A program made the position numbers and the translations under genes. From Rhizophagus irregularis (lineage: Eukaryota): DNA of 64,000 nucleotides. Below are positions 17,787-44,942 of this stretch, piece by piece. The stretch spans positions 4,712,001-4,776,000 of the forward strand of contig NC_089431.1 of NCBI RefSeq assembly GCF_026210795.1. Reading direction: 5' to 3'. The first letter of the stretch is position 1, and each line of letters begins with the position of its first letter. Under the pieces are notes generated by a model. That model worked only from the letters and a program-made list of their open reading frames with translations. It was not told the origin of the DNA and did no database searches.

Positions 17787-18167
17787 AGTAGTATGAAAAC
17801 CCCAATTCTGGCTCACCTACTTATCTCATAATCTAAACCGTTTATTAATATTTTCACCTACTTATATGCTACATATTTTATAACCTAAATCACCTTTTTT
17901 ATATTTTTACCTACTTATCTCATAATCTAAACCGTTTATTAATATTTTCACCTACTTATATCCTACTTATTTCATAATCTAAATCATTTATTAATATTTT
18001 CACCTACTTACCCCCAATCGAACAAGAAATAGGATTTTAAAGCCAACGGAGCCAAAAAAGGTAAGGAAATATTAACCCATCCAGGAAACCAGCCATGGAG
18101 TCAATAGAGCGGAATAGCAAGGCAAGCAATTTCCCTTATACCGAGAAAAAATGTAATTGAATAAAAG
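17787..18167 (+). repeat. Left TIR of element A
   Basis: Reverse complement of 44562-44942 (I see 2 mismatches); internal CACCTACTTA repeats; ends in AAAAAATGTAATTGAATAAAAG. Confidence 0.95.
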
Positions 18168-18206
18168 GTAGGTACCAAGTAACTATACAGATAAATAGTA
18201 CATAAC

Positions 18207-18650
18207 ATGGTATATACCGCAGTATCAGTAATCCTCGAACTTGTGGGCCATATCCTGGAATACATTCCAAGTAGAAATTTCGGGACACATCTTCTAGAAG
18301 TCAGCCCAATCTGGAGAGCCGAAGCTGAACGAATACTCTGGAAGTGGCATAAAGAAGCCGAGGAGGCATACGACAAAGCAGTAGAAAAGAAGGAAAAAGC
18401 AAATTATGCTCTTGGTCGATCAGAGGAGGAGGGTAATAGAAATCGTGACCTCCGTGAACTTGAATGGGAGGCATATCAAAAGGCTTGTAAAGAGAGAACA
18501 AATGCCGCAGTAGAGCATATTATGGTAAAAGAAGCTATTCGCCGTTGTAGCTTACAACTATAAGTTACTTAAGGATAGAGAATACATCGGGACGAGGATG
18601 TGCTCAGTGACTCGGATGACAATCCCGATGACTCAGATGGTGAGGAATAG
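18207..18650 (+). pseudogene. F-box-like protein with acidic tail, frameshifted near the 3' end (element A)
   Basis: LELVGHILEYIP...LLEVSPIW F-box-like start; LWKWHKEAEE matches 41618-42133; acidic tail DEDVLSDSDD...GEE* lies in a shifted frame. Confidence 0.6.
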
Positions 18651-18727
18651 TTTAGGAAGACAGTACTAATCTGTCTCCCTCTTTTTTTTACCCTCATAGG
18701 GTAGGCGAACAATTAATTTTATTTTCA

Positions 18728-18750
18728 GAAAAAATGTAATTGAATAAAAG
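18728..18750 (+). promoter_or_regulatory. Putative virus-type early promoter motif upstream of pPolB
   Basis: GAAAAAATGTAATTGAATAAAAG, identical to the inner end of both element A TIRs; core lies 29 nt before ATG 18773. Confidence 0.65.
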
Positions 18751-18772
18751 AGGAGTATAAAAAGTTTACAAG

Positions 18773-21700
18773 ATGTCAACACATCAAGCAAGAAGTGCCC
18801 AACACAGACAAGTCACCCGATCAGTTCTAGCTGAACTCAAGCAGGTACCTGTCAAGTCCATCCCATATCCCCGCTCAAATGCAAAATTGCAGGAATATGA
18901 GGATGAGATCTGCCAAATCCGTGAAGCACAAGCGGCGGTAACCAATGAAGAGATAACCCGCATGATGCAAATTGACCCAGACCCACATTATGAGGTAGTC
19001 TTTGAACGTCGTGATCAAGTACGTATAGGAAAGGAGTTAACAGACTCAAACTTTACGGCTGATATTGCTATAGGAACACCTGGAGAGCATGACTATGCTT
19101 CATTTCTTACAGCACACAGTCAAACAATCCAGAATATTCTTCAGGATGAAAGAAATCAATTGGGATCAATAAAAGTAAGAATTGGAATATTTGCCACAAT
19201 AAGACGTTTAGATTCTTACCTTGAGGGATTATTCGGAGATGGTAACTTTAGTGAAGATGATGGAGTAGAGTATATCTACAGATATAACATACCATTTAAA
19301 ACTCGCAATATGCCAATCCTACCATCAACAGATATTAATGGTACATTTAATTTTGCATTAGCAAGAATCATGCAGAAAGTAGAAGACTATGTAAATTACG
19401 GATCAGGTTGGGAATTCTATCGTGTAGAAAAAATATTTATAGAAATCTCGCAATTCCAACCACCCACAGGAGCAGGACATATACCACTCCCAAAAGATCT
19501 TGTCACGAAAAAGGGAGTAGTAAATCCAGCTAATGATGATGACAAATGCTTCCAGTGGGCAATCCTAGCAGCATTACATCCAGTAGAAAAGAATGCAGAA
19601 AGAATTTCCAAGTATAAGGAGTATGTAAATGAGTTAAACTTTGAAGGTATCGAATTTCCAGTACAAGCTGATGAGGTAATTCTAAGAAGATTTGAGCGAC
19701 AGAACCCAACTATTGCCCTCTGCATCTGTGAATGGCGTGACCACCGCCTATGTCCAATATATGTTACCGATAGGGATGATGCAGAGGGCCGTAAAATAAT
19801 AGATTTAGTACTTATCAGTAACGGGGAAAAGCAGCACTATTGCTGGATTAAGAATATGAGCCGTTTAGTAAATAAATGTACAAAAGATGGACATGCAACA
19901 TTTGTCTGCCGATGGTGTATCTCCCACTTCACACATCAACAAGAAATCCATGACAAACATGTAGCAATATGTCGAGGATTAAAGAAAACCCCACAAGCAG
20001 ACCGAATGCCATCAGTAAAGAAAGGAAATGATATATATGAATTCAAGAACTGGAAACGCCGCATGCAAGTCCCATATTACTTTGTTGCAGACTTTGAAGC
20101 CCTAGTAATGGACATACCACCCACAGATGAAGACAAAGATAAGAAAACCAAGAAAGTACAAGAGCAAATCCCCTGCTCATACTCGTATATTAAGGTAAGA
20201 TATGATGGTGTAAGTGAATCACAGAAGATATTTACAGGAGAAAATGCAGCACAAAAATTTGTAATCGAAATGCTAAATGAGGCTGAAGCAATTCGCAATG
20301 AATTCAGAAATCCAATGGAAATGATGCCATTAACAACCCAAGAGCAAGTAAGTTATGATAATGCAATAAACTGCTGGATATGTCGCAACCCCTTAGATGG
20401 AAATAAAGTAAGAGACCACTGCCATATTACAGGAAGGTATCGAGGTGCAGCACATAGAGGATATAATCTTGACTTATCCATAAAACCTCGTGAAATGCAT
20501 ATCCCAGTAATCTTTCACAATTTATCAGGATATGATGGACACATAATTATGCAAGGAATTGGTGCAATGGAATGTGAGGATGATATTGATCCTATCCCTT
20601 ATAACATGGAAAAGTATATGGCATTCAAGTTAGGTTCCCTCCGATTTATAGACAGCTTACAATTCATGAAATCAAGTCTCGACAAATTAGCATCCAACCT
20701 AGGCGCAGAAAAATGTAGAGCACAAGAATGTAGTAATTCACAACACTTATGGCGAATTGATGCAGGTAGATGCTTTGCACATCCTGAAAACTTTAAGATA
20801 ACACGAAGTCAAATACCACCTGAATTACTCGAGATTTATCTTAAGAAAGGTGTCTACCCGTATGAATACATGGATGACTGGAAAAAGTTCGAGAAAACTA
20901 GTTTACCACCTAAAGGAGCATTCTATAGCAAACTTAATGAAACCCACATTAGTGATAAAGAATACGAATATGCACAGTATGTATGGGAAAAAGCAGGATG
21001 TAAAACAATGCAAGATTATCATAACATTTATCTCAAAACTGACGTCCTTCTACTAGCCGATATATTTCAGAATTTCCGAGAAATGGCCTTGAAAAAATAT
21101 GGGTTAGATCCTCTCTGGTATTACTCAACACCAGGCTTTGCATGGGATGCACTATTCTTCATGACAGGGCAAAGATTGGATCTTATAACTGACCAGGATA
21201 TGTACATGATGGTAGAACAAGGATTACGTGGTGGAATCTCTATGGTAAGTAAACGATATGCTTGTGCAAATAATCCAGGTATGGGAGAAGGTAAATGGAC
21301 TGCAGATAAGCCCAAGTCATCTATTCTATACTTAGACGCAAATAACCTATATGGATGGGCCATGTTGCAATACTTACCTACAGGTAACTTCCACTGGATA
21401 AAGGAGGAAAACGAGTTATCTAACATTCAAAGGCAAATAGAAAGTAATGAAATACCAGATGATTCTTCTGAGGGATATATCCTTAAAGTCAAACTGGAGT
21501 ACCCTCAAGCCCTTCATTCACAACACACAGATTACCCCCTTGCACCAGAACGAATGAAGGTTAAGAAGGAATGGCTTAGTAAAAAGCAGCAGGAAATAAT
21601 AGCACGTTCAGGACAACGATATACACCCACGGATAAGCTCATCCCTAACCTATTTGATAAGGATGAATATGTAGTTCATTATAGAAATCTCCAGTATTAT

Positions 21701-22669
21701 GTTAGCCAGGGCTTAGTAATCAAGAAGGTCTATGAAGCTATAAAATTCGAGCAGGCTCCATGGATGAAACCATATATAGAATTTAACACCGCCGAACGTG
21801 CTAAGGCTAAGAATGATTTTGAGAAGGACTTCTATAAACTCATGAATAATAGTGTATTTGGTAAAACTATGGAAAATCTCAGGAAACGTGTACGTGTCTC
21901 AGTAGTACAACCCCAAACCCACCCCAAGAAATATAAAAAGCTTACCTCAGATCCTGCATTCAAGGGTCGTAAAATATTCTCAGAAAATCTTGTTGCAATT
22001 CACTGACGAAAAGTGGAGGTAATGCTTAACCGTCCAACATATGTGGGTATGAGTGTGCTTGACCTCTCAAAGCTCTGTATGTATCAATTCTACTATGATA
22101 CTCTTAAAGTACGATATGGTGAAAAAATCCAGTTATGTTATACAGACACAGACTCACTTCTTGTACAAATCCAAACTGAGGATATTAATGCAGACCTTAT
22201 AGATATGGCAGACCAATTTGACTTCAGTGATTATCCTAAAGATCATCCTGTACGAAAAGCATTAGGTGATAAGACTGACATAAATATGAAAATCCCAGGG
22301 AAATTTAAGGATGAATGTAATGGAGCAGTTATAGCAGAATTTATTGGCCTCCGTCCCAAAATGTACTCCATTCTCAAGGTAGGGGATGAGACCACCAATC
22401 CAAAACATGGTATCCGTAAGGCTAAAGGTGTCCCCTCAAAGGTAGTTAAAAAAGAGTTCCACCATGAGCGGTATAATAAGGCACTCTTTGATCCTAAACA
22501 TAATGATACAGTCACCTTTAGAGCAATCCGATCTGATAGACATGCTATAAATGTTATAGAAATGTCGAAGGTGGGGTTATCCCCTATGGATGATAAAAAA
22601 TGGATTGCACAAGATAATATCACAATGTATGCACATGGAGATTATAGGATACCACAACTTGAAAATTAA
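18773..22669 (+). pseudogene. Protein-primed family B DNA polymerase (Polinton type), one in-frame TGA at 22004-22006
   Basis: Exonuclease motifs ADFEA, FHNLSGYD and YLKTDV; polymerase motifs YLDANNLYG, KLMNNSVFGK, YTDTDS and KAKG; CWIC...DHCH endonuclease VII-like insert; N-terminal GSGW, KCFQWAI and QHY. The two ORFs are in the same frame. Confidence 0.95.
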
Positions 22670-23736
22670 TATAATATATGAGTAGGAGGCAGCATAGTAT
22701 CAGATGGCACAACTAATAATTCTTCTCGAGTAAATATTTTTTTAGGTCCATCAGATAACCTATATATAACCGGCTGCCCATCAACAACTGTGGAAGATTC
22801 AATTGTATAAACTTTAGTAGACCATATTGGATCAGTTGCACGTCTCCTACCTTGGTAATCTGAGTTATCAAGTAAGTATCTCACAAGAGAACCAGCTGGT
22901 AAACATATTTCTTCTGCACCTACAGGTCTATCCTTCCGAATTTTTGAAGGTAGTGCATACACTTGATCTTTCTGGATTGCTTCAACTGGAGACATACCTA
23001 GCAGACGAGTATTAGAATTATTTAGCTCATTCACAATATCAGAAAGGTTCTTAACCCAGGCAGTATTCACACCTTCTGTAAGGAGTTCCTTTGCATCCTG
23101 TATTTTGAAAAGTCTCTCTGCTAAAGTTCGATTATACCGTTCAACAATAGCCTGACTCTTATGAGTAGTACCCACCCGAATACGCACACCTTTTTCATCC
23201 ATTAATCGGATAACTTCATCCTTAAATTCTGATCCCCCATCTACTTGTAAAACTCTTGGCCAAATAAGCGGGCAGTCTGCTTTACTATAAATCTTTTTAA
23301 ATGCCTTAGCAACACGTGCAGAGCTGCGATCTTCTAGAGATACTGAAGCTTTATATCGGCTAGCAACATCTACAATATTTAGACAGTATTTATACAGCTT
23401 TCTATCTACAGTATCATAGGGCATATATAAGATATCTGCTTGATGATACATATTTGGTCGAGTAATCTTATTAAAAGAAACCTGTGGAACATACTTGGGT
23501 ATAGGTGAGTGTATTTGCCATATAGCCTGTTTATGCAACCACTCTGTAATATCAGATATGTTAAAATCATGGCCCTCAGCTTGCACTTTAGCCCAAAGTT
23601 TTTCAGGAGTACGATAATATCCACATGGATGGTAATAGATTTGTTGAAGGATATAATTTTGTTCGATTTGTTTATTAAATGTAGGGTCTATAAAAATCTG
23701 TGGAACTGGCAATGGAAGATACATCGTTAAAGACAC
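22666..23736 (-). CDS. Retroviral-like (rve, DDE) integrase, Polinton type, no chromodomain (element A)
   Basis: HQADIL, VDVASRY, QVDGGSEF and VERYNRTL; start codon uncertain. Confidence 0.92.
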   Translation of the reverse strand: MSLTMYLPLPVPQIFIDPTFNKQIEQNYILQQIYYHPCGYYRTPEKLWAKVQAEGHDFNISDITEWLHKQAIWQIHSPIPKYVPQVSFNKITRPNMYHQADILYMPYDTVDRKLYKYCLNIVDVASRYKASVSLEDRSSARVAKAFKKIYSKADCPLIWPRVLQVDGGSEFKDEVIRLMDEKGVRIRVGTTHKSQAIVERYNRTLAERLFKIQDAKELLTEGVNTAWVKNLSDIVNELNNSNTRLLGMSPVEAIQKDQVYALPSKIRKDRPVGAEEICLPAGSLVRYLLDNSDYQGRRRATDPIWSTKVYTIESSTVVDGQPVIYRLSDGPKKIFTREELLVVPSDTMLPPTHILY

Positions 23737-26048
23737 AGATTACAAAGCTTGCACATACATTGCAATCACAAGAGCAATATATAAAATACCTGTATGGTGT
23801 AATCGAGGGTCATGAATCTGAGATAGAAGAACTTAGGCAAAAAAATGCTGAGTTGCGTGCAAAGCTTAAGAAAGCATTAGAAACGGCATCACTAAAGGAG
23901 GAAGGGCTTCAAGCATTAGAACGTCAGCTGATTGAAGTTGATACTCTAAATATTCAACTTAAAGATCGAATAAAAGAACTTGCTAATAGACAACGGAAAA
24001 ACATGGCAGCAATTCCTCCTGACCCTATTACAGAAATCTTAAATAATCGGACAACTATAGCAAATAGTGTAGCTGGTATTCGTATTCACCTTGATCGTAC
24101 AACTATAGCAGCACACCCTCATATAAATCATTTATTTAACACTGCAAATGATAGTCTTGATGCCATTATCCGATATGCTAATGAGTTGCGAAATATTATA
24201 GAAGATCAAGATAATATGGAGGATAGACTTGAAGGTTTGTTAGATGATGCACATAACCGTGAAGAATATCTTAGACATGAACTTAATAATACACGTGCTA
24301 CTATACTGAGAACAAGACGTACCTATGAGGATGCATATGCAAATGAAGTGCGTTATCGCCAACATTGGGAAGTCCTTGCACAAAATACTCAGATCCAATT
24401 GGCTAACATCCAGGCTCAATATGCTAACAGTCAAATTCAACTAGCTAATGTCCAGAGAGAACGTAATGAGAGTAGAAGAAATGCTCATAGATTATTACAG
24501 CGCTATAATACTGAAACAGAACGAAGTAGAAGGCGGGCTAATGGTATCATTCAGCAAGCTCGAGCATGGAGAGGGCAATTTTTAAACTGTCGTAATCATG
24601 GTCAAAATTTGCAAAATCAGGTCAATAATTTGAATCAACAGATTCTAGCATTACAAAATAACCCTCCGGTAATACAACAACCGATAATGGCAGAATATGC
24701 ACCTAAAAAATTTAGAGGAGCATCTGGTGAAGATCCAGAACTTTGGCTTCAAGAATTCAGGCAATGGTGTGAGTCTGCTGGACTTGATCCTGCTGCTAAT
24801 GCTAGAACTCGTGTTAGGATTCATGGGGTCTTTGAGACTTTACTTGAAGATGATGCTAGAGATTGGTATGAAACACATATCAAAGGAAAAAATTGGGAAT
24901 GTGTAAATCTTCTGGATAATACTGGTGTGGCCAATCTTGCTGCTTTTAATGCTTTGAATAATGGCGCTATACAGGCTGTAGCGGCGAATCAATTTTGTGG
25001 AGGGGCTAATGTATTACATGGACAAGCAGCTGCAGTTAATACTATTACTGGTGCTAATTTTATACCTGATCATACTGTATGGGATGAAGATTGGTCAATA
25101 GTCGAGGGTCGTCCTACTGATATAGCTGTTAATAATCCTAATGCTAATAATGGAGGTACAATTGTGGCTCCTGGAATACGTATTGGACAATTAATATATC
25201 GTTTTAAGCATTACTTCCCTACTATAACATCTGAAAAGTCTAAGCTTGCATTTAATGCTATTGTTCAGGGTAGTGATACTGTAAGCCGATTCTATTCTAA
25301 ATTACGAAGAATGGTTAGACTTGCATATCCAACTCTTCCAGAGGTAAATCAGAATGAATTAGTACGGCAACAGTTCTTAAATGGTCTTTCCAGTGAAAAT
25401 AAGTTGGATGCGTGACGTATTGGTTTAGAAAATTCAGTTGCATCTATTCTGAATAAATTGGAAGAAGTTGAGAAATACAGGACAGATATGCCACCTACTC
25501 CTATAGTTACATATCAGGGTCCAACTTTAGCGGATATTGAGAATCTTATAAATTCTAAAATTCCTATGACTACGGCTAGATCATCTGCAGTACCAGTACC
25601 ATCTTCTAGTCCATTTTCAAGTCCTCAAAATGATACATCATTTCAGAGATTACTTGCTTTAGCATATAAATTAGGTCTTCCAAGAGATATCGATATAAGT
25701 AAAGTAACCCTTAGTGATCTTGAAATATTTATTGATACAGAACTTAATAAAAATTTACCATCTGACCATATTTACCGTGGTAATCAGGTATTTGGTATAA
25801 GTTCAGGTACACGCAAACCAAAGAAATCAAAGAAATGCTCAAGTTGTGGTAAATCTGGTCATACTAAGAGTTCCTGTCCAAAATCTAAGAAGGGAAAGAG
25901 GAAAACAAATTATGCACATGACTCCTCTGATTCCTCTAACTCTTCTGACGCCTCTGACTCCTCTGACTCCTCTGATAGTGATTCAGACTCTGGACATGCC
26001 TGCTATGGATTAAAAAAAAAAGCCTACAGAAAGGAAACGTGTAGATAA
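23712..26048 (+). pseudogene. Gag-like polyprotein: coiled-coil N-terminus, retrotransposon capsid domain, CCHC zinc knuckle; in-frame TGA at 25413-25415 (element A)
   Basis: PKKFRGASGEDPELWLQEF, LEDDARDWY, QGSDTVSRFYSKL (MHR-like), QQFLNGL and CSSCGKSGHTKSSC (CX2CX4HX4C). ORFs 23700 and 25458 share a frame. Confidence 0.85.
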
Positions 26049-26922
26049 AAAGCCTACTGATAAGAAAAAATCACAACTTGAAAGGCAGCGTATTATCTTT
26101 GAGGTTTTTATACAACTCTTAAAGCTTCTGGTTCAATCCTTCGTTAATGCTGTACCAAAAGAGACTGTTATATCTGCTTACAATGCTCTGAATGCTGAAT
26201 TCATTAATTATAAAGAACCAGTACTCAGTCAGCTTAAAGGAGAACCCTCAATAAAAACACGTGAAAAAGTTTGGGATAATGTTAAGGACCTTTTCACATC
26301 TATCCTTCATCCTATGATTTCAGTTGTAACTAATAGTATGGCTGCAAATTTAATCCGTAAAAATGATGATGTTATATGTAATAATGACTTATGGTCTTCT
26401 ATAGCAGGTATTGGAATTGTTAACCGCAAGTCTGCTAGTGATGTAGTCACTATTAAGACCAAAGTAGTCGCACCTGAGAGTGAAAAATCTTTAGTTATTC
26501 CTACGACAATTTTCGATACTGGTTCTGATAGTTCTCTGATATCTAACAATATTGTAAAGCGCCTAAATCTTGACGTTGATAGAAGTAATGCTCCTGACCT
26601 TAGTGGTGTTGCAATAAAATCTGATACTATTGGGACAGTATATGGTCTTGGTATTCTTGTATATGATGGGGAGAACTCTAAAAAAATTGAAGATGACTTC
26701 ATGGTTGTTAAGAGTGATAAGGACTTTTTATTGCTAGGTGTACCTTGGATTGATCGTGCTAATGTCATTCTAGATTTCCAAAATCGGCAACTGACCATCC
26801 CTCTATCATCACGTAAAAAAATTACCATTCCAATTTCTCTACATAAACGGAAAACTAACGTGACTTCCTTGCAGATGGATACTATCGACTTAAAAAAAAT
26901 TCACACTCTCGAGGAAGATTAA
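26020..26922 (+). CDS. Retropepsin-type aspartic protease, frame open from the A10 run at the end of gag (element A)
   Basis: IFDTGSDSSLIS and FLLLGVPWI; frame is stop-free from ~26020 into the annotated 26314 ORF. Confidence 0.88.
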   Translation, partial: KPTERKRVDKKPTDKKKSQLERQRIIFEVFIQLLKLLVQSFVNAVPKETVISAYNALNAEFINYKEPVLSQLKGEPSIKTREKVWDNVKDLFTSILHPMISVVTNSMAANLIRKNDDVICNNDLWSSIAGIGIVNRKSASDVVTIKTKVVAPESEKSLVIPTTIFDTGSDSSLISNNIVKRLNLDVDRSNAPDLSGVAIKSDTIGTVYGLGILVYDGENSKKIEDDFMVVKSDKDFLLLGVPWIDRANVILDFQNRQLTIPLSSRKKITIPISLHKRKTNVTSLQMDTIDLKKIHTLEED

Positions 26923-27854: not shown

Positions 27855-27882
27855 ATTAGTACTCGATTTGATAGAACAAAAA

Positions 27883-30360: not shown

Positions 30361-30444
30361 GCGCTATTTGAGATTATTTCTTTTTTTTTCGTATATATAT
30401 AGAAAGATATTATTTATAGTTGAAGACAAATCATATACATAAAA

Positions 30445-32885: not shown

Positions 32886-32967
32886 ACCCCGAGGTTCATA
32901 TTTATTTTTTCTCATTCGAATGAACAGGTAACTGAAGATTTATATTTTTTACAAAGTACAAAGAATC

Positions 32968-33438: not shown

Positions 33439-33547
33439 GCGGCTCCTGTGGTCCTACGATTCTGTACGAATTTAGTCTATATTTTTTATCCATATGTAAT
33501 AGGCATACAGTAATTGAAGATAGCTATAGTATAAGTAACATAACATC

Positions 33548-35286: not shown

Positions 35287-35448
35287 TGGTCAGTCCTCCG
35301 GTCCTCTGGTCTTCCGGTCTTTCCAACGGTTGATCCCATTAATGCCAGTTATTTTTTTTTTATACAAATGACAGGTATTTAAAGATAACAATATATAAAA
35401 AAGATTGTGAAGGATACTAAGTGAGTGAATAATCAAAGAAAGATAGCC

Positions 35449-36000
35449 ATGTCAACATCAATCGTAATAAACCAGTGTCAGAACTGTGGAGTATTCTCTG
35501 CAAAAGCGGCATATAGAGGATTATCCAGCGTGTTGTATAGACAGATTATAAAGAAGATTGGTGACGAGAGTGAACCTTTACAAGCCTTGGGACTTGCCAG
35601 GGATAAGTTGGTCCAGATTATCCGTCGGGCAAGTAATGCGGATTTTACACAATTATTCACACAAAGACTAGATATGAAAATTATGGACGGAGATTCATAC
35701 GAGGATACTAGGAAGTGGCTTCTTGAACAGCTTATAGCCATTGGATGTGACAGTGGGGAAATTGCCTTATATCAGTTCTTACGGAATACATACCCGGATG
35801 GTATTGACGAACCCTTTACTACATTCTATGAGAACTATGTAAATCATGTAAGAAATCCGATGACTAAGAACTTTGCTTCTCGAGCCTTAGGAGCTATTGG
35901 ATTAAAAGCTAGGATGCTACGGATTGACTTCGAAGGACGTAAAAAAAGCGCCATGATTCTTAGGGCTTCTGCGGAAGAACTTCGCGAGATGGGTTGCTAA
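35449..36000 (+). CDS. Hypothetical protein, possible C-terminal winged helix (element B)
   Basis: EPFTTFYENY...MTKNFASRAL resembles the D5-type C-terminal wHTH of the neighbouring helicase (weak). Confidence 0.6.
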   Translation: MSTSIVINQCQNCGVFSAKAAYRGLSSVLYRQIIKKIGDESEPLQALGLARDKLVQIIRRASNADFTQLFTQRLDMKIMDGDSYEDTRKWLLEQLIAIGCDSGEIALYQFLRNTYPDGIDEPFTTFYENYVNHVRNPMTKNFASRALGAIGLKARMLRIDFEGRKKSAMILRASAEELREMGC

Positions 36001-36013
36001 AGCAACCAGATTC

Positions 36014-37204
36014 TTACAAAATACTATTGATCCCTACTCGTAATGCTCGACGGTCCATATGACCCTTAGAAAAGATCTGTAAAAGGACCCCGATGCCTTC
36101 TATTATTTTTTTATTATCCAAAGGGTGACTAGACTTCAGGACTTCATATCGGAAGAATAACTCCTTTACGGTCTCAGATTTTGGAATTTCAGTCTTCGCG
36201 GTCCTATCCCGTACTTTCGCTAAGAAGTTTTGGAAGTCTGATCCCAGGGTCTTACCAGATAATCCGTAGGCTTCCCGAAAGACGTACTTAATCCAGGTAT
36301 CTGCGTTCTTAGCTATAATACCAGATACGAGGAGGTGTTTTCTCTCTTTAGGCGATGGATATTCCCGAGCAAACTCAATTAGCTGGAAGGACTTTTTTGC
36401 TTCAGCTACAGCTTTTTGGCCATAAGGACTAAACTTTGATCGAACTGGGTTCAAACTCGGATCGAACGGGGATTGAACTGAGTTCGAACTAGAATCGAAC
36501 TGAGATTGATCAGTGATCGAACTGAGACTAGTATCCCATCTAACCCGAATGGATAACGGATCGCTCTTGGATCTTCTAAGATCAAACACTACAAATTCAC
36601 GTTGCAGAGTAAGATCATCAATTACTGGTGCTAATGACTCTGATTCTTCTGTATATAGGCGGATGATTCTCTTAGTATCGGTCAAACTTCCGTGACCTCC
36701 ATGTAGGGAAATATAATTCACATTTTCACGAATAGCCTTGGGAATGGTAAAGAATCTTTGGGCCACATAAATACATGAAATATTTTTGGTTCGTCCGTGT
36801 GTAAAAAATCCAGTGATGAGATCCTGGGTTTTTTTAGGCGCATCCATCAAATCCTTGAAGATTACCACAGTAGCCTGGGTGGAGTTGAAGTCCTTAACAT
36901 TTGGAATCTCACTATGGGATACTGCGGTAAACGGAATTTCTTCTTCTTTGAAAAAATCACGTACGACTGCCCACTTCGGTTCATCGAGGTATCTGCCAAC
37001 TAGAATTACCGCATCACATAATATGTACCTTTCGCCATCCTCCTTTGCCTTCTTGTCTCCCATTAACAAATTAATAATCATAGTTGTCTTACCCGAGTCA
37101 GAACTTCCTGCTACGGCAAGACGGAAAGGCCATGATGGGGCAAACTCATTACCCTGTCTCGAGTCGGTCGTGTACTCGTCCAAATTGTATACATAAAGAT
37201 CCAT
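36014..37204 (-). CDS. A32/FtsK-HerA-like DNA packaging ATPase (element B)
   Basis: GSSDSGKTT (Walker A), VVIFKDL (Walker B variant), THGRTKNIS, AQRFF and IPKAIRENVNY. Confidence 0.88.
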   Translation of the reverse strand: MDLYVYNLDEYTTDSRQGNEFAPSWPFRLAVAGSSDSGKTTMIINLLMGDKKAKEDGERYILCDAVILVGRYLDEPKWAVVRDFFKEEEIPFTAVSHSEIPNVKDFNSTQATVVIFKDLMDAPKKTQDLITGFFTHGRTKNISCIYVAQRFFTIPKAIRENVNYISLHGGHGSLTDTKRIIRLYTEESESLAPVIDDLTLQREFVVFDLRRSKSDPLSIRVRWDTSLSSITDQSQFDSSSNSVQSPFDPSLNPVRSKFSPYGQKAVAEAKKSFQLIEFAREYPSPKERKHLLVSGIIAKNADTWIKYVFREAYGLSGKTLGSDFQNFLAKVRDRTAKTEIPKSETVKELFFRYEVLKSSHPLDNKKIIEGIGVLLQIFSKGHMDRRALRVGINSIL

Positions 37205-37235
37205 TTGAATTTTATTCTATCTTAGTTTAAATACG

Positions 37236-39418
37236 ATGTCGACACCAATTGCAATTTATACTCCTTCAGAGCCTACTGGACCGCCTCCTAGGGATTTGCG
37301 TGATATGAATAATATACCATTAGTTGCGGTAATTAAGGATCTAACAGATTTTTTAACTGTCAGTGATCGCATGGTTGTTAATCGAGATGTACAAAATGCA
37401 AATCATCGTCTTAAACATGCTCTTAATTTATTAATTCATCGCTGTAGAGAAACATACGAAGAACGCGATATATTAAAAGCGGAACGTGATCGATCTCGAA
37501 AAGAACGTGATGAATTACAAGATGAACTCGAGGTTCAAACGGGTTTGTTAGGTCTTACACAAGATGAGCTAAATAACGTACAAGATACTATTACTAGTTT
37601 AGAAGCTAATTTGGCTGAATTGGAACGTGAGTTTGGTGGTATGCGGACGACTAATCGTCGTCTTCAGCAGCAATATAATCTTATGAGAGGAGAACGTAAT
37701 AGAGCTATAGGTGAACGTAATAGAGCTATAGGCGAGCGTGATGTGGCACGAAATCGGCTTGTATATGCCAATAATCGGGTTCTTTTTGGAATTCGGACAT
37801 TGGGACGTCTTAGGAATCGACTTTTCCAACAAATAGCCGCTCTGCGTATCCAAGTACAATGGTTTCGGATTAGACAATTGAACCTTCCTCCACCTCCTCT
37901 CAACCATTCACAAAATACGATATGGCTGCCGTTGGTATAGCTGCCCCCATATTTCATGGTCGGGAAGATGAAGATCTTAATCTTTTTATTGATAACTTTT
38001 TAGGGTATATTAATACCGTTGGTATTGATCCATTGGACGATGCCGGTGCACCTCCTGGTCGGGTGCGAGCGATGGGGGTTCTTCGTAGCTGTATGAGAGA
38101 TGAAGCGGCGAGGTGGTTTGATGCAGAACTTACTGGAAAAAATTGGGAACTCTCGAATATTCGGTTAGTGGCTACTGCAAATGGTGGAGCCGGTGCTACT
38201 CGCCGAGCGTTCAGAGCTTTAGCTGTTCCTGAGGTTGCTAATGGATTACATGTTGGTACTTACTTACCCGGGTCTGATGTTGATGCATATTCAAGGATTT
38301 TAGCTAATGCGGCGAGAACCGTTGGAGAAACATTTTTCCCATCACGCGCTGATATCGTTAGAACGAATTTTAAAGTTGAAGAGCAGTGGAGGCGTGCGGG
38401 CGGACGTCCTACTCATCAACCCGTTAATGGGTTGGGAAATCATGGAGGTCCATTTAATGCTGCTGTCCAGAATCAACCAATAGTCTTACAGGGGATTCTC
38501 CTGGATCAAGCATTTATGCATATGCGTACAAATTTTCCAACCGTCGTGGAAGAAAGACTTCAAATACGATTTAGTAACCTTTACCAGGAACAAGGTGAAC
38601 CTGTTCGATCTTACTATAAGCGAGTTGAGAGGGCTGGGGATATTGTAGGATATAATCGAATTATGGTTACTGACCAGTTCTATAGAGGACTTTTGCCGGA
38701 AAACGTTATTGAAGCTTCCAGAATCGGGGCGGCACCTCTTAATACATTAATCGATAGATTGAGTGATCTTGAGCGACGAAAGGGCAAAATGTTCTATGGA
38801 TTACAAAGGCGTCAGGGTATTGAAAAGGCTAAAAAAGAGGAATTGGCTGGCTATACTCATCCCGTGACTCCACACGAAGGTGCTGTAATACAAAGGTCGA
38901 CAGACGTTATTACTCAAGAACGATTACAAGAATTGCTCAAGGCACAAGCCGAGGAACTTACCAAGAATTTCCAGGCACAATTTAAACAATTACAAGCATC
39001 TAAGCCAGTTCGTAAACCACCGGTCTATAGACAACAGATTAAACCTGTTCGGCCAAAGCCACGGCCACGCGTTGTTCAGGATCATCAGGATCCTGATTGG
39101 GATGATGGTTATGTAGATCATAATTTTGGTGATGACCCTGGTGACCCTGATGCTCCTGAGTGGACTAGTGAGGATGATCAACATGTTATTGATCTTATTA
39201 TGGGATATGAGACGTCTAAAAGATTTCCAAAGAGACTTCAGAAGGCTAAAGATAGACGCGATGATCTGGAATTAGCCCGAGCAATGAGAAACCTCGATCT
39301 TAATGATGATGCTATGGATATTGATACTAATACCGCGAGTTTTGATGACTTGAAAATTGTTCCCGATGAGGAAGGTGGTTTTCGGATTTGTGCGGTTCGA
39401 AGTACAAAAAAAAAGTAA
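37236..39418 (+). CDS. Gag-like polyprotein (coiled-coil part 37236-37940, capsid part 37922-39418; probably one ORF broken by a 1-nt indel near 37895) (element B)
   Basis: PIFHGREDEDLNLFIDNF, MRDEAARWF, QEQGEPVRSYYKRV (MHR-like) and DQFYRGL; collinear with the fused element A Gag; no zinc knuckle. Confidence 0.82.
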
Positions 39419-40137
39419 ACTCGGATAAGGGTGTAAGTATCTCGAAACTTCTTAAATCTGTTCCAAAAAAATCAGTTAAAATGACTCCTATTAAGATTCC
39501 TGTGAAGGTTACTAGTAGTAAGCCCACACTTATAAAAGCCGTCACCAAAAATGATTCATTAAGTTTATTAAGGTCTGCAGATTTTAGAAAATTACTCCGC
39601 GAGATTCTTCGGGAAGAATTAAAGTCTGCTCGTAAAAGTACGGAGATTCCGGAAGACCTAGTTGAAGAAAAACAAGAAGAGGATATCAGGGAAGATGACC
39701 CGATGGATATTGACATAGCTCGTTTGGAGAATACTAAAGATCTTTTAGCACTGGATGGGAAGGTCAATGGGATAGCAATTCAGTGTTTAGCAGACACTTG
39801 TGCTAACGCGTCTTTTATTCAGAGGGAAGCCGCTGAAGAATTAGTGTTGGATATCGACAAGAGTATTACACATAACATATCCGGCGCTCCGGGTTCTGAT
39901 AGGACATTTGGCATGGTAAAAGGTGTGTCAATCAAACTAACCCCTGATTGTGTAATCACTGAGAATCTCGCGGTTTTAAGCGATTACAAGCATAGGGAGA
40001 TTGGATTGAGCCGGACGTGTCTGAAACGTTACAATTATGATGTCCATGAATCACGTGAACATATTGCCCTTACTTGTAATGAGAAGAATGTTTTTATCCC
40101 AATAGTTTCTGACGTGAATCGAGGAGACAAAAAATAG
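39388..40137 (+). CDS. Retropepsin-like aspartic protease in -1 frame to gag, atypical DTC active-site motif (element B)
   Basis: VNGIAIQCLADTCANASFI; overlaps the gag end at A AAA AAA AAG TAA. Confidence 0.8.
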   Translation: MCGSKYKKKVNSDKGVSISKLLKSVPKKSVKMTPIKIPVKVTSSKPTLIKAVTKNDSLSLLRSADFRKLLREILREELKSARKSTEIPEDLVEEKQEEDIREDDPMDIDIARLENTKDLLALDGKVNGIAIQCLADTCANASFIQREAAEELVLDIDKSITHNISGAPGSDRTFGMVKGVSIKLTPDCVITENLAVLSDYKHREIGLSRTCLKRYNYDVHESREHIALTCNEKNVFIPIVSDVNRGDKK

Positions 40138-40151
40138 GGAATATTTATTTT

Positions 40152-41279
40152 TTATTCCCAAAACTTGCGGATTAAGGCAGGGACATCCTCCTCCAACCGG
40201 TCAGCGGGTTCCCAAGTGGCTTCGGTATCTGGGTATCGTTCCCACTTGACTAGATACTGGTCTTGACCCTTCCTGATGCGATGCCGGAGTATCCGCTCAG
40301 GTACAAATCTTTCGGGTTGCCCTCTTATCACGGAGTCAGGTGGGGGATGTTCATTTTCTGGAACAATCTGCAACTCTTTTCGGGTGTACGCACATCTGGA
40401 TACACCTAGACGCCCGTGTGGTCCATCAAGAAGATACGTAGGAGGCTGTTCGGGTGAGAGGATCATTTTTTTGATGACACGGATATTGGGATTCCATCTT
40501 ATGTCACCTGTACGAAATTTTCTATGGAGTTTATTCCCGAGTACTGAAATAGGTTCGTCTAACTTGACTCGGACATGTGTTCCTTCAGAGAGAAGTTCCG
40601 TCTTTTTTGACACTTTGGGTGACCCTGTCGGAATGTCTGGGGGATTTCTCTGCCAGATTTCATCTATTTTATTAACTACATCACGGAAATCTTCTGACCA
40701 TTCCACGGATGTCACCCCGGTCTTCAACTCCTGTGCCACCATTCGTTTTAGGAGAGGTTCCTGGATTGCTTGGATGGCTCGTTCAGCGTATGATTGCTGT
40801 TTGTGTCTTCCTGGTTCGCCGAACCTCATCATCACCCCTAGGCTGTTCAGGAAAAAATCACGTACCTGATCATTAGTGAATTCTGATCCGGAGTCTGTCT
40901 CTATTCGATGTGTTGGTGGCTTAATGCGATTTCTTCTGTAGATTTTAACAAATCCATTGAGAACCTTATTTGCGGTTTTATCCTTTAGGGGTTCTGCATC
41001 GACTTGTTTACCCGTGACTTCCACCACTACGAGGAAATAGTGGAATCCTTTGGGATCGACTGGCATCTCTGCAAGATCTGCCTGATGTGTTGCATTTGGT
41101 TTCCATACAACTACTCGTGGACGCTCTGATGACTTCTCCTTTAGGGGCTTTTTATATAGGTTGTAGTGCTCCTCACCTTTTAGAATTCGTGCCGGTACTC
41201 TGGAGAGATTGTAGTATTTGTAGTAATTCTCTAAATGCGACATATTACGACAAATTAAAGGAAAGATTTCAGACTTCAA
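40152..41279 (-). CDS. rve (DDE) integrase with C-terminal chromodomain (element B)
   Basis: HQADLAEM, ETDSGSEF and AERAIQ; FVPERILRHR...YLVKWERYPDTEATWEP chromodomain. Confidence 0.92.
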   Translation of the reverse strand: MKSEIFPLICRNMSHLENYYKYYNLSRVPARILKGEEHYNLYKKPLKEKSSERPRVVVWKPNATHQADLAEMPVDPKGFHYFLVVVEVTGKQVDAEPLKDKTANKVLNGFVKIYRRNRIKPPTHRIETDSGSEFTNDQVRDFFLNSLGVMMRFGEPGRHKQQSYAERAIQAIQEPLLKRMVAQELKTGVTSVEWSEDFRDVVNKIDEIWQRNPPDIPTGSPKVSKKTELLSEGTHVRVKLDEPISVLGNKLHRKFRTGDIRWNPNIRVIKKMILSPEQPPTYLLDGPHGRLGVSRCAYTRKELQIVPENEHPPPDSVIRGQPERFVPERILRHRIRKGQDQYLVKWERYPDTEATWEPADRLEEDVPALIRKFWE

Positions 41280-41287
41280 ATCTTAAG

Positions 41288-41608
41288 ATGACACGATTTT
41301 ACTGCCTAAAGTGTAAGAAGGAAACCGAGACTGCTAGTGAAATACAAGATATGACCACAAATGGCCGCTATCGTTTACATGGTGACTGTGTAGTTTGTGG
41401 GATGCATAAGAATACTTTTACTGGGATAGACTGGGTTATCAAAAAGAAAACCAAGGAGAAGAAAAAAGAAACTGCGGCTAAAAGACATCAGATGGCGTAC
41501 AATCGGCAATGCAAAAAACTCGGGCAGAAAATCTTAGATTCTGATGACACGTGTAAGCAGTGTATTGATAAATGCCTTAAGGAGGCAAAAAAGAGGAAGA
41601 CGGATTAG
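41288..41608 (+). CDS. Small zinc-ribbon protein (DUF5679-like) (element B)
   Basis: MTRFYCLKCKK...TNGRYRLHGDCVVCG..KNTF; ATG at 41288. Confidence 0.75.
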   Translation: MTRFYCLKCKKETETASEIQDMTTNGRYRLHGDCVVCGMHKNTFTGIDWVIKKKTKEKKKETAAKRHQMAYNRQCKKLGQKILDSDDTCKQCIDKCLKEAKKRKTD

Positions 41609-41617
41609 TACCGCCTT

Positions 41618-42133
41618 CTAAAAGTATTCCTCATCATCTGAGTCATCGAGAGATACCTCTCCATCATCTGATTCATCATCCGAGTCATCAGGAGTGCGAC
41701 CTTCCTTAAGCAATTGGATGTTGTACGTTATTTGAGTCCATTTCTCCCAGTCAGACTCTTGCGTTATAAAGCCGCATCTGAGGAGTGCTCTTTCTATTAC
41801 TACCATCCCTGCAAACCTGGTGTATTTTTTCTGATCGGCTTCATTGAAATTGTCAATGGCTTCTTTGTAGTAGTCTACTGCCTGTTTGTATACCTCTTCG
41901 GCTTCTTTATGCCGCTTCCACAACTCGGCTTTACAACAGTTATACCAGAGTCTGTTAATCTTGAGATGTTTTCCGAATTCTTTAACCGGAAGGTTTCTGA
42001 CCATCTCTGCTACTATGTCTGGGTCATTGAGGGGTGATGCCTGAATTTGGATCCATTTACGGATTCCATAGATGTCTACAAGATCAAGCCCGAGGTCTTC
42101 GGCAAGAGAAGTGGCGGCGTGTAAGTTTATCAT
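41618..42133 (-). CDS. F-box-like protein with acidic tail (element B), homologue of 18207-18650
   Basis: DPDIVAEMVRNLP...LKINRLW; LWKRHKEAEE; DDSDDESDD tail. Confidence 0.7.
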   Translation of the reverse strand: MINLHAATSLAEDLGLDLVDIYGIRKWIQIQASPLNDPDIVAEMVRNLPVKEFGKHLKINRLWYNCCKAELWKRHKEAEEVYKQAVDYYKEAIDNFNEADQKKYTRFAGMVVIERALLRCGFITQESDWEKWTQITYNIQLLKEGRTPDDSDDESDDGEVSLDDSDDEEYF

Positions 42134-42143
42134 TGTATGTTAC

Positions 42144-42658
42144 TTATAGTTACCTAATCTTCAATTGCCGAATGTATTTTTTCTGACGGGGGTAAGTGGT
42201 CATAGTTCGGGTGCCATAGTTCGGCTGTCATAGTTCGGCTGCCATAGTTCGGGTGCCATAGTTCAGGACATAGGGAATCATACTTGGAGGGTCTAGGTGA
42301 GTATATAAAGGGTAATCATAGCGTGAATCGGGTTTTGGGGTCTGAGGGGCTGACTAAGGCTGCCATAGTATTATTATAAGATTTTTCGTACTATGGCAGG
42401 TACTATGGCAGGAGATTCTGTTTGATTTCGGCTTTATTCGCGTTTTTATTCCATTTTTAAGTACTCTGCCATAGTTGCCATAGTTGTCATAGTAAGTTAT
42501 ATATAAGAAAAAATGTAGAAAAAAAAAAAGTGGAAAAATACCGTGGCAGACCATGGTACTGTGGCAGGTAAACCTGCCCCACGGAGGGGGGATGTAGGTA
42601 CTGCGAGGCCCTGGCCGAGGTGGAGGAACGTTAGTGACTACACTACCAGCCCGACGAC
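42144..42658 (-). repeat. Right TIR of element B (515 bp)
   Basis: Reverse complement of the left TIR with five instead of three 14-bp units. Confidence 0.93.
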
Positions 42659-42663
42659 ACAGA

Positions 42664-42937
42664 TAGGCCATAATAATACTCCATCCATATTAAGCTTTCT
42701 GATATATTTTCCACATACTGTCCCTGGTTTTGTGAGATGTTTGTACATTTGGAACTCCTTAATATTATAGAGGTTATAAAGGTCTGTTTCACCCCATAGG
42801 AGAGAGTTTGCTACTACAGCCCATTTTCGACACACTAATGCATAATTGCAAAGATAATGCCAACGGGAGTAAGTACCTTCATATGAAGTTTTGAATATCT
42901 TTTCTAAAAGTTCGAAAGGTAAGCTATTGTTTGTCAT
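42664..42937 (-). pseudogene. 5' half of split F-box gene of element A
   Basis: NSLPFELLEKIF...ALVCRKW F-box; ...LLWPIC continues as IVKMLQAC at 27362. Confidence 0.88.
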
Positions 42938-43041
42938 GGTATCTCATATGAGATATTGATGAAGAAGTTTTATTTAATTAGATTTTTTCTTAGGATAAAA
43001 TAATTTGAACATTTCTTTTCTATCAATAGAAAAAACCAGAC

Positions 43042-43833
43042 ATGCTTACTTTTAGTGAACTTACTCCATCTCTTACTGTTACTGAATTTAAGATCAATGT
43101 TGAAGGGCTTGATTACACCGTGCTTGGTCATAAGCTTGAACCTACTAAGGATGTTATTGCCATTAATAGCAACTTTATTCATAAAGCTTTTGAGGGTTAT
43201 GAACAGTACTTGTCTAAACCAAAAGGTGAGAGGCGATGCAGACGAAGTACACCTGACAATCCATTAAATAGACGGCGACGTACAGGGGATGGTAGCACTT
43301 TTAATGCATGCATTGAGTTTGTTATCATCTTAGCTGATACTGTACATACTATTCGTTATTTTCCTAAATCTGGTAGTATACAAGTTTTCGGGTCTTTTGA
43401 TCCTGTTGCTATCTTCTTACGTTACCTTTCTGAATGTTCCCTACCTGAATTTTCTTCTGTAGAACTTGTGGGTGAAAATAAGGCTCTCCTGCGCAATTAT
43501 AAATTTGTGATTAATATTGGGGGTGATAAGTTTATTAATCTTTCTACCTTAGCATATGCTTTAGAATCTATAGATGGTATTCGTGAGATTCTTCCCTTTC
43601 CGATAAAGTATATTAAGAATGATGCAGGTGATATTCATTCTAAAATTGCTATAATCTTTACTTCAAAGATTCGGGTACATATCTGGCCTAAATCTGGTAA
43701 GGTTAATATATTTGGCACTAAGACTGAATTGGATGCTGATATGGTTTATAAGTTCTTACAGAAGTTGTTTTCTAATCCATATAATTTTGGAGATTTTATT
43801 TGTGATGCACCTATTCCAGATTGCGAGAGGTAA
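43042..43833 (+). CDS. Viral-type TATA-binding-protein homologue (ASFV B263R-like) (element A)
   Basis: Two TBP-like repeats IRYFPKSGSIQVFG and VHIWPKSGKVNIFG; AINSNF, GDGSTFN and PIPD match my recollection of asfarvirus B263R. Confidence 0.85.
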   Translation: MLTFSELTPSLTVTEFKINVEGLDYTVLGHKLEPTKDVIAINSNFIHKAFEGYEQYLSKPKGERRCRRSTPDNPLNRRRRTGDGSTFNACIEFVIILADTVHTIRYFPKSGSIQVFGSFDPVAIFLRYLSECSLPEFSSVELVGENKALLRNYKFVINIGGDKFINLSTLAYALESIDGIREILPFPIKYIKNDAGDIHSKIAIIFTSKIRVHIWPKSGKVNIFGTKTELDADMVYKFLQKLFSNPYNFGDFICDAPIPDCER

Positions 43834-43853
43834 AAAAATGGTTTCACTGAAAA

Positions 43854-44537
43854 CTAGAAACCCTCTATTTGTAAAATCCAGCAATCGCATTCATGACTTC
43901 TTGTTGGCATAAGACATTCGTCACATAGAGTTATAGCCAACTCATTTTTTAGCCTATCCAGCTGACTCTCAGTGGTTGGTGCAAGATTTTGGTAGTATTC
44001 ATTGAATTCATTCTGCTCTTCTTCATTTATGTCTTCATCTATATCTTCATCTGTGTCTTCATCCATATCTTCATCTCCTTTTATATGATAGATGCTGAAT
44101 TCATTTCTATATTCATCATTAGGATTTGTGAATATTCTTTGTATATTGTAATCTATAATGTTGAATGTTGTAGGTTTCTTTTTTGATAATATTTCTACTA
44201 AGTCTAATAATGCATATGCTAATTCTTTATCCTCTGAGAAGTTCTTAATGATATCTGAAAATCTTTCATATATTGCCATCTCATCTGGTAGAATAGAATA
44301 TCTTATTCGTGATAAAAGTGATGGATGTATCCATATATCATCACCTTCTAACATGTCATCAAATATTTCTACTAGCTCTTCTAATCCAGATACTAACATA
44401 CTTTCTTTGCTAAATTCGGAATCTAAAGCTTTTAAATATGCTATATCTAAATACCACATTATTTCCTTTACCCATTCTTCTATGTTGAGTTCAAACTGGC
44501 CTAGTATACGTCTTAGTAATGGTCTGTATTGTGACAT
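43854..44537 (-). CDS. Acidic hypothetical protein with C-terminal Cys cluster (element A)
   Basis: 227-aa ORF directly inside the right TIR; ends LCDECLMPTRSHECDC. Confidence 0.75.
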   Translation of the reverse strand: MSQYRPLLRRILGQFELNIEEWVKEIMWYLDIAYLKALDSEFSKESMLVSGLEELVEIFDDMLEGDDIWIHPSLLSRIRYSILPDEMAIYERFSDIIKNFSEDKELAYALLDLVEILSKKKPTTFNIIDYNIQRIFTNPNDEYRNEFSIYHIKGDEDMDEDTDEDIDEDINEEEQNEFNEYYQNLAPTTESQLDRLKNELAITLCDECLMPTRSHECDCWILQIEGF

Positions 44538-44561
44538 CTTGTAAGTCTTTTATATGTGAAT

Positions 44562-44942
44562 CTTTTATTCAATTACATTTTTTCTCGGTATAAGGGAAAT
44601 TGCTTGCCTTGCTATTCCGCTCTATTGACTCCATGGCTGGTTTCCTGGATGGGTTAATATTTCCTTACCTTTTTTGGCTCCGTTGGCTTTGAAATCCTAT
44701 TTCTTGTTCGGTTGGGGGTAAGTAGGTGAAAATATTAATAAATGATTTAGATTATGAAATAAGTAGGATATAAGTAGGTGAAAATATTAATAAACGGTTT
44801 AGATTATGAGATAAGTAGGTAAAAATATAAAAAAGGTGATTTAGGTTATAAAATATGTAGCATATAAGTAGGTGAAAATATTAATAAACGGTTTAGATTA
44901 TGAGATAAGTAGGTGAGCCAGAATTGGGGTTTTCATACTACT
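44562..44942 (-). repeat. Right TIR of element A
   Basis: Reverse complement of 17787-18167; ends TACTACT. Confidence 0.95.

Follow-up and report, generated by a model that had tools for sequence, protein, structure and literature searches.

Maverick/Polinton elements are recognised by a protein-primed DNA polymerase B (pPolB), an integrase, long terminal inverted repeats (TIRs) and a short target duplication, and whether they are self-sufficient nuclear elements or parasites of giant viruses is an open question for most lineages. Polintons are on record in the fungus Rhizophagus irregularis (Kapitonov and Jurka 2006, as cited in the sources that follow), and Glomus/Rhizophagus A32 ATPases group with Maverick-Polintons (PMC11296320; bioRxiv 10.64898/2026.06.19.733378). 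Rhizophagus PolBs also stand in the tree of Starrett et al. 2021 (PMC8502044), where the legend to Figure 5 lists the labels TBP (TATA-binding protein), Matrix/Capsid/NC/Pro and S3H, the element bearing them being unconfirmed. The available text of these records (PMC8502044, PMC11296320) gives no promoters, terminators, asfarvirus origin of a TBP or helper dependence, and a full-text literature search, with Repbase outside its reach, returned no account of promoters or helper dependence for fungal Polintons. Here we describe a window of 64,000 nucleotides (nt) of R. irregularis (assembly GCF_026210795.1, contig NC_089431.1, positions 4,712,001 to 4,776,000), in which two nested Polinton-like elements at window positions 17787-44942 show these hallmarks, the pPolB being found in the outer one, together with transcription signals that match those of giant viruses of the type of African swine fever virus (ASFV). 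We consider it likely that both depend, as satellites, on an asfarvirus-like virus that infects the fungus and whose RNA polymerase reads their genes.

Virophages of the Sputnik/mavirus type carry a virophage capsid, a penton and a cysteine protease, none of which was detected in either element by profile searches, a retropepsin being present. The definition of a transpoviron, a TIR-bearing episome of about 7 kb with a helicase and few genes, does not fit them either, as they are 12 and 15 kb long and integrated. The elements would thus act like virophages or transpovirons but are members of neither group; use of a helper's promoters is also described for mimivirus transpovirons and endogenous virophages. 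The Phaeocystis globosa virus virophage PgVV, or Gezel-14T, is likewise Polinton-like, with monocistronic genes and the early promoter of a giant virus, including before its DNA polymerase; the available text credits it with jelly-roll capsids, a mesomimivirus helper and five promoter matches before open reading frames (ORFs) (bioRxiv 2022.07.28.501842). Unlike PgVV, the present elements have no capsid that we could find, and they show poly(T) termination, avoidance of runs of at least five T (T5) and a viral TBP. The Pacmanvirus lostcity transpoviron (pltv) likewise has TIRs, lacks a capsid and is associated with a relative of asfarviruses; this episome of 7 kb encodes a helicase, the available description including neither polymerase nor integrase, it has AAAATTGA before two genes and TATATA before six, and its virus has a T-rich 3' motif (PMC11788076). 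The present elements differ from pltv in their length of 12-15 kb, their integration with 5-bp duplications, their pPolB and integrase, and an early code that is found on most genes. For ASFV itself, Cackett et al. 2020 (PMC7163114) report an early motif whose distance to the start is about 10 bp, a TA(+1)NA initiator, and poly(T) terminators of at least four T that are enriched on early genes.

Over 17.8-44.9 kb, the stretch occupied by the elements, the GC content is raised to about 40%, from about 25%. The outer one (17787-44942, about 11.9 kb without the inner one) has 381-nt TIRs with termini AGTAGT...ACTACT, and its 5-bp target duplication, AGAGG, is seen at both flanks; its TIR arms (17787-18167 and 44562-44942) are 99% complementary. 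The inner one (27369-42658, 15.3 kb) has TIRs of about 480 nt, whose arms extend to 27854 and 42144, and a 5-bp duplication, ACAGA, at its flanks; it was inserted into an F-box gene of the outer element, the reading of which continues past the insert, as comparison with the homologue in locus L002 indicates. Since the TIRs are 99% identical and stops or frameshifts are present in both element copies, the insertions appear to be recent and now decaying. The outer genes comprise pPolB, an integrase, a Gag-like/zinc knuckle/retropepsin block, an F-box gene, the TBP gene and two orphans, and the inner ones a D5-like primase-helicase, a second PolB-like gene, small ORFs, an A32 ATPase, a Gag-like/retropepsin block and a chromodomain integrase. 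A retroviral-type integrase (PF00665) is encoded by both. No RNA polymerase or capping domain was found by Pfam in 25 ORFs, and a jelly-roll capsid gave no match in Pfam, PHROGs or NCBIfam, libraries with few such models. An A32-like packaging ATPase (PF04665) was detected in the inner element and none in the outer; an adenovirus-type cysteine protease was found by Pfam in neither, retropepsin-type aspartyl proteases being present in both instead.

An earlier note on this DNA, made from the letters, had reported the core A[AG][TC]TGAA[GT]A before ten genes. The motif is exact at every one of these sites (18155, 18738, 27832, 30418, 32347, 32930, 33512 and 34403 on the plus strand, 42166 and 44574 on the minus strand), and five further exact matches lie inside coding sequence (26685, 38374 and 39660; 40729 and 23959 on the minus strand). 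Ten of the 15 matches in the elements lie 10-60 nt 5' of a curated ATG, a zone that holds 2.1% of positions (binomial p 4e-14), the motif-to-ATG distance being 14-52 nt across the ten genes. The motif occurs in nine of 22 upstream 60-mers, against a mean of 0.115 and a maximum of two in 2000 dinucleotide shuffles and none in antisense, figures to be read with the knowledge that it was defined on the same sites, that two pairs of these are TIR copies and that 18738 repeats the TIR promoter, which leaves about seven independent sites. Composition-preserving shuffles nonetheless stay far below the observed count, so that positional enrichment over background, on which the note had staked its proposal, is found; none of the seven upstream regions of host ORFs in the window has the motif. 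As also proposed, all four TIRs stop shortly after a motif, the outer arms 4 nt and the inner arms 14 nt past it. Three suggested variants fared unevenly: ATTTGAACA at 43003 stands 39 nt 5' of the TBP gene, whereas those at 35377 and, on the minus strand, 42979 lack the G, and the latter looks decayed because F-box orthologues retain that G. Kinship with viral promoters held in the form A[AT]TTGAA, but the exact mimivirus AAAATTGA or yeast-plasmid ATNTGA is found at none of the ten sites. The ASFV early motif is published as a logo (PMC7163114).

The seven T-runs named by the note (at about 18683, 30381, 32320, 32905, 33482, 34017 and 35352) are likewise all present. Of 18 stops, 12 have a run of at least six T (T6) in the next 70 nt (p 1e-8 over a background of 10%), and two have A6; left out of the 18 were four genes whose ORF runs into the next one or is interrupted by the inner element. 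If a polymerase stops at oligo-T, such runs must be missing from the sense strand of its genes. With synonymous codons shuffled within each gene to give the expectation, the 12 ORFs of the ten strict-motif genes contain no sense T5 where 7.4 would be expected, a count reached by 0 of 1000 shuffles, and still none, against 11.1, with the three variant-motif genes included; the pPolB alone has none against 3.1 (5 of 200 shuffles as low), and the TBP gene alone none against 3.4. In ten gag, protease, integrase, ATPase and neighbouring ORFs, 13 T5 are found where 11.1 are expected, and in five host ORFs 10 where 12.8 are expected. As the purged pPolB has its relatives in animal records and not in asfarviruses, the code would seem to have been imposed on non-viral genes. 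The vaccinia signal TTTTTNT was also considered and is depleted too (0 against 3.7), but plain oligo-T is preferred because the runs at 32320 and 34017 are not of the vaccinia form. In these respects the unit seen here resembles an asfarvirus-type early transcription unit, with an AT-rich TGA motif at a fixed distance upstream of the ATG, poly(T) after the ORF and none inside it.

Because the motif had been chosen on window sites, about three of which are copies, its enrichment was re-tested on held-out data. Other R. irregularis copies of the elements were compared as proteins only, and scans of IMG/VR with pPolB and with the element TBP alignment returned no relatives. Alignment of TBPs gathered 32 metagenomic loci with the same gene order, of which L001, a near-copy of the window element, was left out of the counts. 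A wider core, A[ATG][TC]TGAA, lies 5' of 15 of 28 dereplicated genes of these relatives, mostly at 28-43 nt (shuffle mean 2.2, maximum 7 of 1000; antisense 6). Their 33 dereplicated early-type ORFs hold 16 T5 against 42 expected, six of the 16 in ORFs extended past the likely start, and nine gag/integrase/protease stretches hold 7 against 8.8. We also collected 28 giant-virus loci with a TBP of the type of ASFV B263R and counted 21, the near-duplicates L034, L036, L038-L040, L047 and L055 being left out. Here A[AT]TTGAA precedes 56 of 289 ORFs (shuffle mean 7.8, maximum 16; antisense 11) with a peak at 30-40 nt, and these 56 ORFs contain 15 T5 where 56 are expected. In 14 of 20 loci the viral TBP gene itself is preceded by the core, like that of the element.

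The TBP of the outer element, overlooked in the earlier note, is by sequence and predicted structure of asfarvirus type. It is a 263-amino-acid product of the ORF 43042-43833 (plus strand), 99% identical to an R. irregularis record, with ATTTGAACA included in the unit 43003-43833. Its predicted fold is that of a TATA-binding protein (predicted local distance difference test, pLDDT, 88); a sequence search against the Protein Data Bank (PDB) gave no match, whereas a fold search did match PDB TBPs (E 4e-7). Among named viral structures, it comes closest to the B263R homologue of abalone asfa-like virus (template modelling score, TM, 0.76), which the TBP family profile finds at E 3e-25. The protein is 31% identical over 256 amino acids to a 263-amino-acid protein of locus L033, which occupies the position of ASFV B263R and whose capsid matches ASFV B646L. 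Purifying selection acts on the protein: nine element TBPs, compared in 36 pairs, have a ratio of nonsynonymous to synonymous substitution (dN/dS) of 0.14-0.58 in every pair, and synonymous sites of the TBP gene are near saturation across lineages that still keep the signals. The inner element has no TBP and yet uses the same motif as the outer one. In ASFV, B263R belongs to the early genes, and a role at late promoters has been proposed for it (PMC7163114).

A TATA word follows the motif by 13-22 nt at 7 of 13 window sites (1.9 expected, the interval having been chosen on the same sites), at 14 of 56 viral sites (6.9 expected; 26/5000), at 6 of 15 metagenomic sites (2.5 expected; 145/5000) and at none of eight internal or ambiguous sites. 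The earlier note had found the motif weak or ambiguous before gag, integrase and ATPase, and suspected a second, late class. The strict motif is indeed absent there, but the wider core does stand 5' of the inner cc234 (at -33), gag (at -46) and integrase (at -38). These three cores are bare, with no TATA word following. On the other side, gag, protease, integrase and ATPase tolerate T5 and have no TATA after any core, so that the suspicion of a second class stood in this respect. A clean division between genes with and without the motif was dropped on account of the three inner genes, and on the evidence of the sequences the early/late split is real but softer than first proposed. The T-tolerant genes lie in head-to-head pairs with 0-41 nt between starts (23712-23724, 37204-37236, 41243-41285), as they also do in L006 and L008, and at such distances each promoter must sit in the coding sequence of the partner.

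Several lines converge on the helper nucleocytovirus that the earlier note had inferred: the T5 purge confined to motif genes, the match with viral loci, the element TBP and a published insert in R. irregularis itself (PMC10640383). From the viral loci and the TBP we infer that such a helper would be asfarvirus-like rather than mimivirus- or poxvirus-like. Its early transcription factor would bind A[AT]TTGAA, initiation would occur at TATA/TANA about 15-22 nt past the motif, and the polymerase would halt when it meets the first oligo-T, so that each gene yields a single capped mRNA. The early set would comprise replication genes (pPolB, D5 primase-helicase), F-box proteins and the TBP, with each TIR driving transcription inward. 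Less firmly, gag-protease, integrase and A32 ATPase may be expressed after replication as a class of their own, by a late machinery that tolerates T-runs, and the element TBP may serve these late genes or compete with the helper's own TBP. An integrated copy without a helper would be silent and decay.

Early promoters of poxviruses are read by virion-packaged enzymes. Those of ASFV are read in the same way (PMC7163114). If the early enzymes are packaged in the virion, the DNA of the elements would ride in helper particles like that of transpovirons, or else newly made early factor would read it late. More speculatively, and as a possibility that we hold only tentatively, these would be chromosomal satellites of an unisolated asfarvirus, capsid-less and carried inside helper particles, in which the replication genes and a stolen B263R-type TBP are switched on at entry and the TBP turns the helper's late machinery on the element's own Gag, protease and integrase, and of which the many recent copies serve as an inducible anti-giant-virus system and as a record of routine infection of mycorrhizal fungi. 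A satellite that bears its helper's TBP would be a new twist on virophage and transpoviron biology. If the helper reading is correct, a long-known family of fungal Polintons is tied to asfarvirus-like viruses, so far represented in this fungus by one insert in one strain, and, as the 99% identical TIRs point to recent moves, infections by such viruses would recur in a fungus that is sold as a crop inoculant. The combination of promoter position with loss of T5 from the coding strand, the element's other genes serving as control, also offers a culture-free test that can be made on sequence.

Zhao et al. 2023 (PMC10640383) describe the published insert, a 1.5-Mb asfarvirus-related segment of strain 4401 that includes genes for RNA polymerase and for capping; the same report gives 15-33 PolB copies per genome. 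A comparison with asfarvirus-related regions had been suggested in the earlier note, and its outcome is mixed. The insert was read by eye in 60-nt rows; among the first 30 of 48 plus-strand matches to AAATTGAA, 15 have at least 35 nt downstream, and in 10 of these 15 readable rows an ATG follows at 20-50 nt, eight of them at 28-34 nt. When open ATGs alone are counted, AAATTGAA gives 9 of 15 against 3 of 16 for a control word (p 0.02, by eye). Row 2333, followed in full, has the motif, an ATG 30 nt on, about 210 codons without T5 and then T8. Each of two element termini gave 0 matches in the insert, where row breaks can hide some. This weak sign of motif-ATG spacing was not joined by a separation in bulk counts, and use of the same motif grammar by the 4401 insert is suggestive only.

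A number of observations weigh against the reading of a helper's polymerase. In the insert, the control word (87 matches, 30 viewed, 16 readable) has an ATG in 6 of 16 rows, three of which close at once (p 0.10); the bulk counts are 57 for the motif against 55 and 19 for two controls, the first of which is not separated from it; and AATTGAAGA, the form of the inner element, is rare there, with 11 occurrences against 43 for AATTGAATA. In the locus of ASFV itself, A[AT]TTGAA precedes none of ten ORFs, the TBP gene included, and 13 of the 28 metagenomic upstream regions lack the core. Viral ORFs without any WWTGAA are also poor in T5 (172 against 274 expected), and a motif class that takes in the three inner bare-core genes holds 7 T5 against 14.6 expected (2/500). 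No motif was found for the late genes. A quick TBP tree places the element TBPs in one clade (support 99) without resolving the donor. A hairpin precedes 5 of 17 T-runs at z < -2 (mean z -0.9), which would suit a plasmid-type terminator as well. As to expression, two poly(A) runs and a further raw run filed under the same species gave 254, 340 and 306 reads on 27860-44550 out of about 11 million records, a run of unknown type (X1) being left out; 65-79% of the mapped reads run into unlike sequence, most align only in part and cluster at a few short patches, among them 34990-35234, and the three read sets show no piles of transcript starts or ends on 27860-44550. This near-absence of poly(A) reads fits silencing, or a strain without the copy, equally well and carries little weight. 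At 34990-35234 itself lies an insertion of about 245 nt that has many different flanks in RNA reads and is probably a repeat resembling a miniature inverted-repeat transposable element, common in host transcripts.

Of other explanations, we give rather low odds to a pGKL2-type helper, a cytoplasmic linear plasmid that brings its own RNA polymerase and capping enzyme and on which the elements, while episomal, would depend in the manner of pGKL1. Linear plasmids of yeasts and Mucoromycota do share with the elements a pPolB, TIRs, a promoter 20-40 nt 5' of the ATG and, as proposed for the elements, reliance on another's RNA polymerase (PMC6211774, PMC13348850); helper plasmids of this type are present in Mucoromycota (PMC13348850), the promoter spacing is that given for the plasmids (PMC6211774), ATTTGA, which matches ATNTGA, stands at 8 of 15 motif sites of the relatives, and hairpins stand before some T-runs. 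ATNTGA is fitted, however, by none of the ten strict window sites. The plasmids are cytoplasmic and terminate at stem-loops (PMC6211774, PMC13348850), whereas the present elements are integrase-bearing insertions; plasmid transcripts end at such stem-loops without a shared sequence signal (PMC6211774), while oligo-T here follows stops and is purged from coding strands. The available text describes no role for a B263R-type TBP in the reduced plasmid machinery (PMC6211774), and the main text of PMC13348850 names Glomeromycota or Rhizophagus 0 times.

About as improbable, in our estimate, is that these are nuclear Mavericks read by RNA polymerase II (Pol II) of the host, possibly with their own TBP, and that the signals are relics or a convergent element promoter. 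Maverick-type elements are generally taken as nuclear, which favours this account, and the outer pPolB is closest to Maverick-type animal records. It is hard to reconcile with host genes of the window that do not avoid T5, any more than do the elements' own gag and integrase, or with signals that persist across lineages in which synonymous sites of the TBP are nearly saturated. Moreover, the TIRs and genes of non-viral origin have the signals too, the same motif is used by the inner element, which has no TBP, and poly(A) reads over motif genes are near zero in three runs. Finally, chance AT-rich words in compact intergenic spacers, a thought invited by a short AT-rich motif chosen on these sites and by several sites being mutual copies, can practically be discarded: shuffles that preserve composition, the controls with the antisense strand and with A-runs, and the held-out sets of elements and of viruses all speak against them.

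The signals can be followed gene by gene from the left outer TIR, beginning with the helper reading's presumed early genes. The motif at 18155-18163 (plus strand) lies at the inner end of this TIR, 52 nt 5' of ORF 18207-18563, and that at 18738-18746 (plus strand) lies 35 nt 5' of pPolB, with TATA 18 nt on and the preceding gene's T8 run at 18682. The pPolB gene (18773-22669, plus strand) encodes a Maverick-type protein-primed PolB with an endonuclease VII domain; it has a stop at 22004-22006 and no sense T5, and its product is 47-49% identical to animal records, many with PF03175. The motif at 27832-27840 (plus strand), in the left inner TIR, is 51 nt 5' of the D5-like primase-helicase (27883-30360), which is followed by T9 at 30381. 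The next (30418-30426, plus strand) is 27 nt 5' of the frameshifted gene 30445-32297, with T6 at 32320; this gene gave no match in profile searches, and we take it to be PolB-like from PolB motifs. Three tandem units on the plus strand (32347-34022) then repeat the order motif, ORF start, T6, namely 32347, 32361 and 32905; 32930, 32968 and 33482; and 33512, 33548 (F-box-like) and 34017. In the first unit an ATG lies 14 nt past the motif and a second in-frame ATG 44 nt past it, the likely true start being 32391. The motif at 34403-34411 (plus strand) is 46 nt 5' of ATG 34449 of a 2-cysteine-adaptor ORF, with T10 at 35352; the longest ORF begins upstream of the motif, and the fitting ATG is out of frame by one base that is absent from other copies.

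The variant ATTTAAAGA at 35377-35385 (plus strand), with TATATA, stands 72 nt 5' of the orphan ORF 35449-36000, a C-terminal segment of which resembles a D5 helicase winged helix, as a lead only. On the minus strand, the motif at 42158-42166 in the right inner TIR is 33 nt 5' of ORF 42133-41618, with T6 after the stop, and that at 44566-44574 in the right outer TIR is 37 nt 5' of ORF 44537-43854, with T7 after the stop. The 5' part of the outer F-box gene (42638-42979, minus strand; ATG 42937) has the G-less variant at 42979 and is cut by the inner element. Genes without the strict motif include the outer rve integrase (22666-23724, minus strand; T5 tolerated), the outer coiled-coil/Gag-like, zinc knuckle and retropepsin ORFs (23712-26922, plus strand; stop at 25413-25415, A-run slippery-like site near 26010) and the A32-like ATPase (36014-37204, minus strand; two sense T6 runs). 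The inner coiled-coil, Gag-like and retropepsin ORFs (37236-40137, plus strand) tolerate sense T5/T6, with T6 at 40148; bare cores at 37203 and 37876 have no TATA. The inner rve-chromodomain integrase (40152-41243, minus strand) has its bare core at -38 without TATA and one sense T6.

Gag-like, retropepsin and integrase genes thus lie inside pPolB elements (22666-26922 and 37236-41243), the integrase on the opposite strand, and Gag may stand in place of a capsid in both; the assignment of the large unassigned ORFs as Gag-like is a lead only. The two Gag/retropepsin/integrase modules are only about 28-32% identical to each other. An A-run slippery-like site lies at the frame change from Gag/zinc knuckle to protease in both elements (26000-26030 and 39395-39420) and also in L008 and L020, and it is likely that -1 frameshifting occurs there as in retroelements, though no reverse transcriptase is present. 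Among the metagenomic relatives, L013-L019, L023 and L027 join an outer-type TBP and protease to homologues of inner genes (i_156, i_174, F-box), mixed gene sets which suggest that the two families exchange genes; several F-box genes of this lineage lack the TGA core. Convergent genes of L005, L006 and L007 have in common a T-run and an A-run separated by a few bases, as a two-way terminator, and L027 and L032 have a second short protease-like gene with its own motif directly 5' of the TBP gene, apparently a promoter duplication.

An Rfam scan gave 0 matches. The ratio of observed to expected CpG is 0.91 in the inner element and 0.43-0.54 in the outer one (18200-44560), consistent with longer host methylation of the outer family. 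The outer element interrupts a flanking ORF (17324-17791, 44917-46159) that continues on the other side and possibly belongs to another mobile element. Repeats of about 320 nt with high CpG, inverted as well as direct and nested, lie just left of the outer element (16473-17436). Host-side repeats at 1-2300, 48844-49974 and 59668-62943 comprise AT-rich arrays, an ORF built from a 33-nt unit in tandem, and two AT-rich repeats in inverted orientation.

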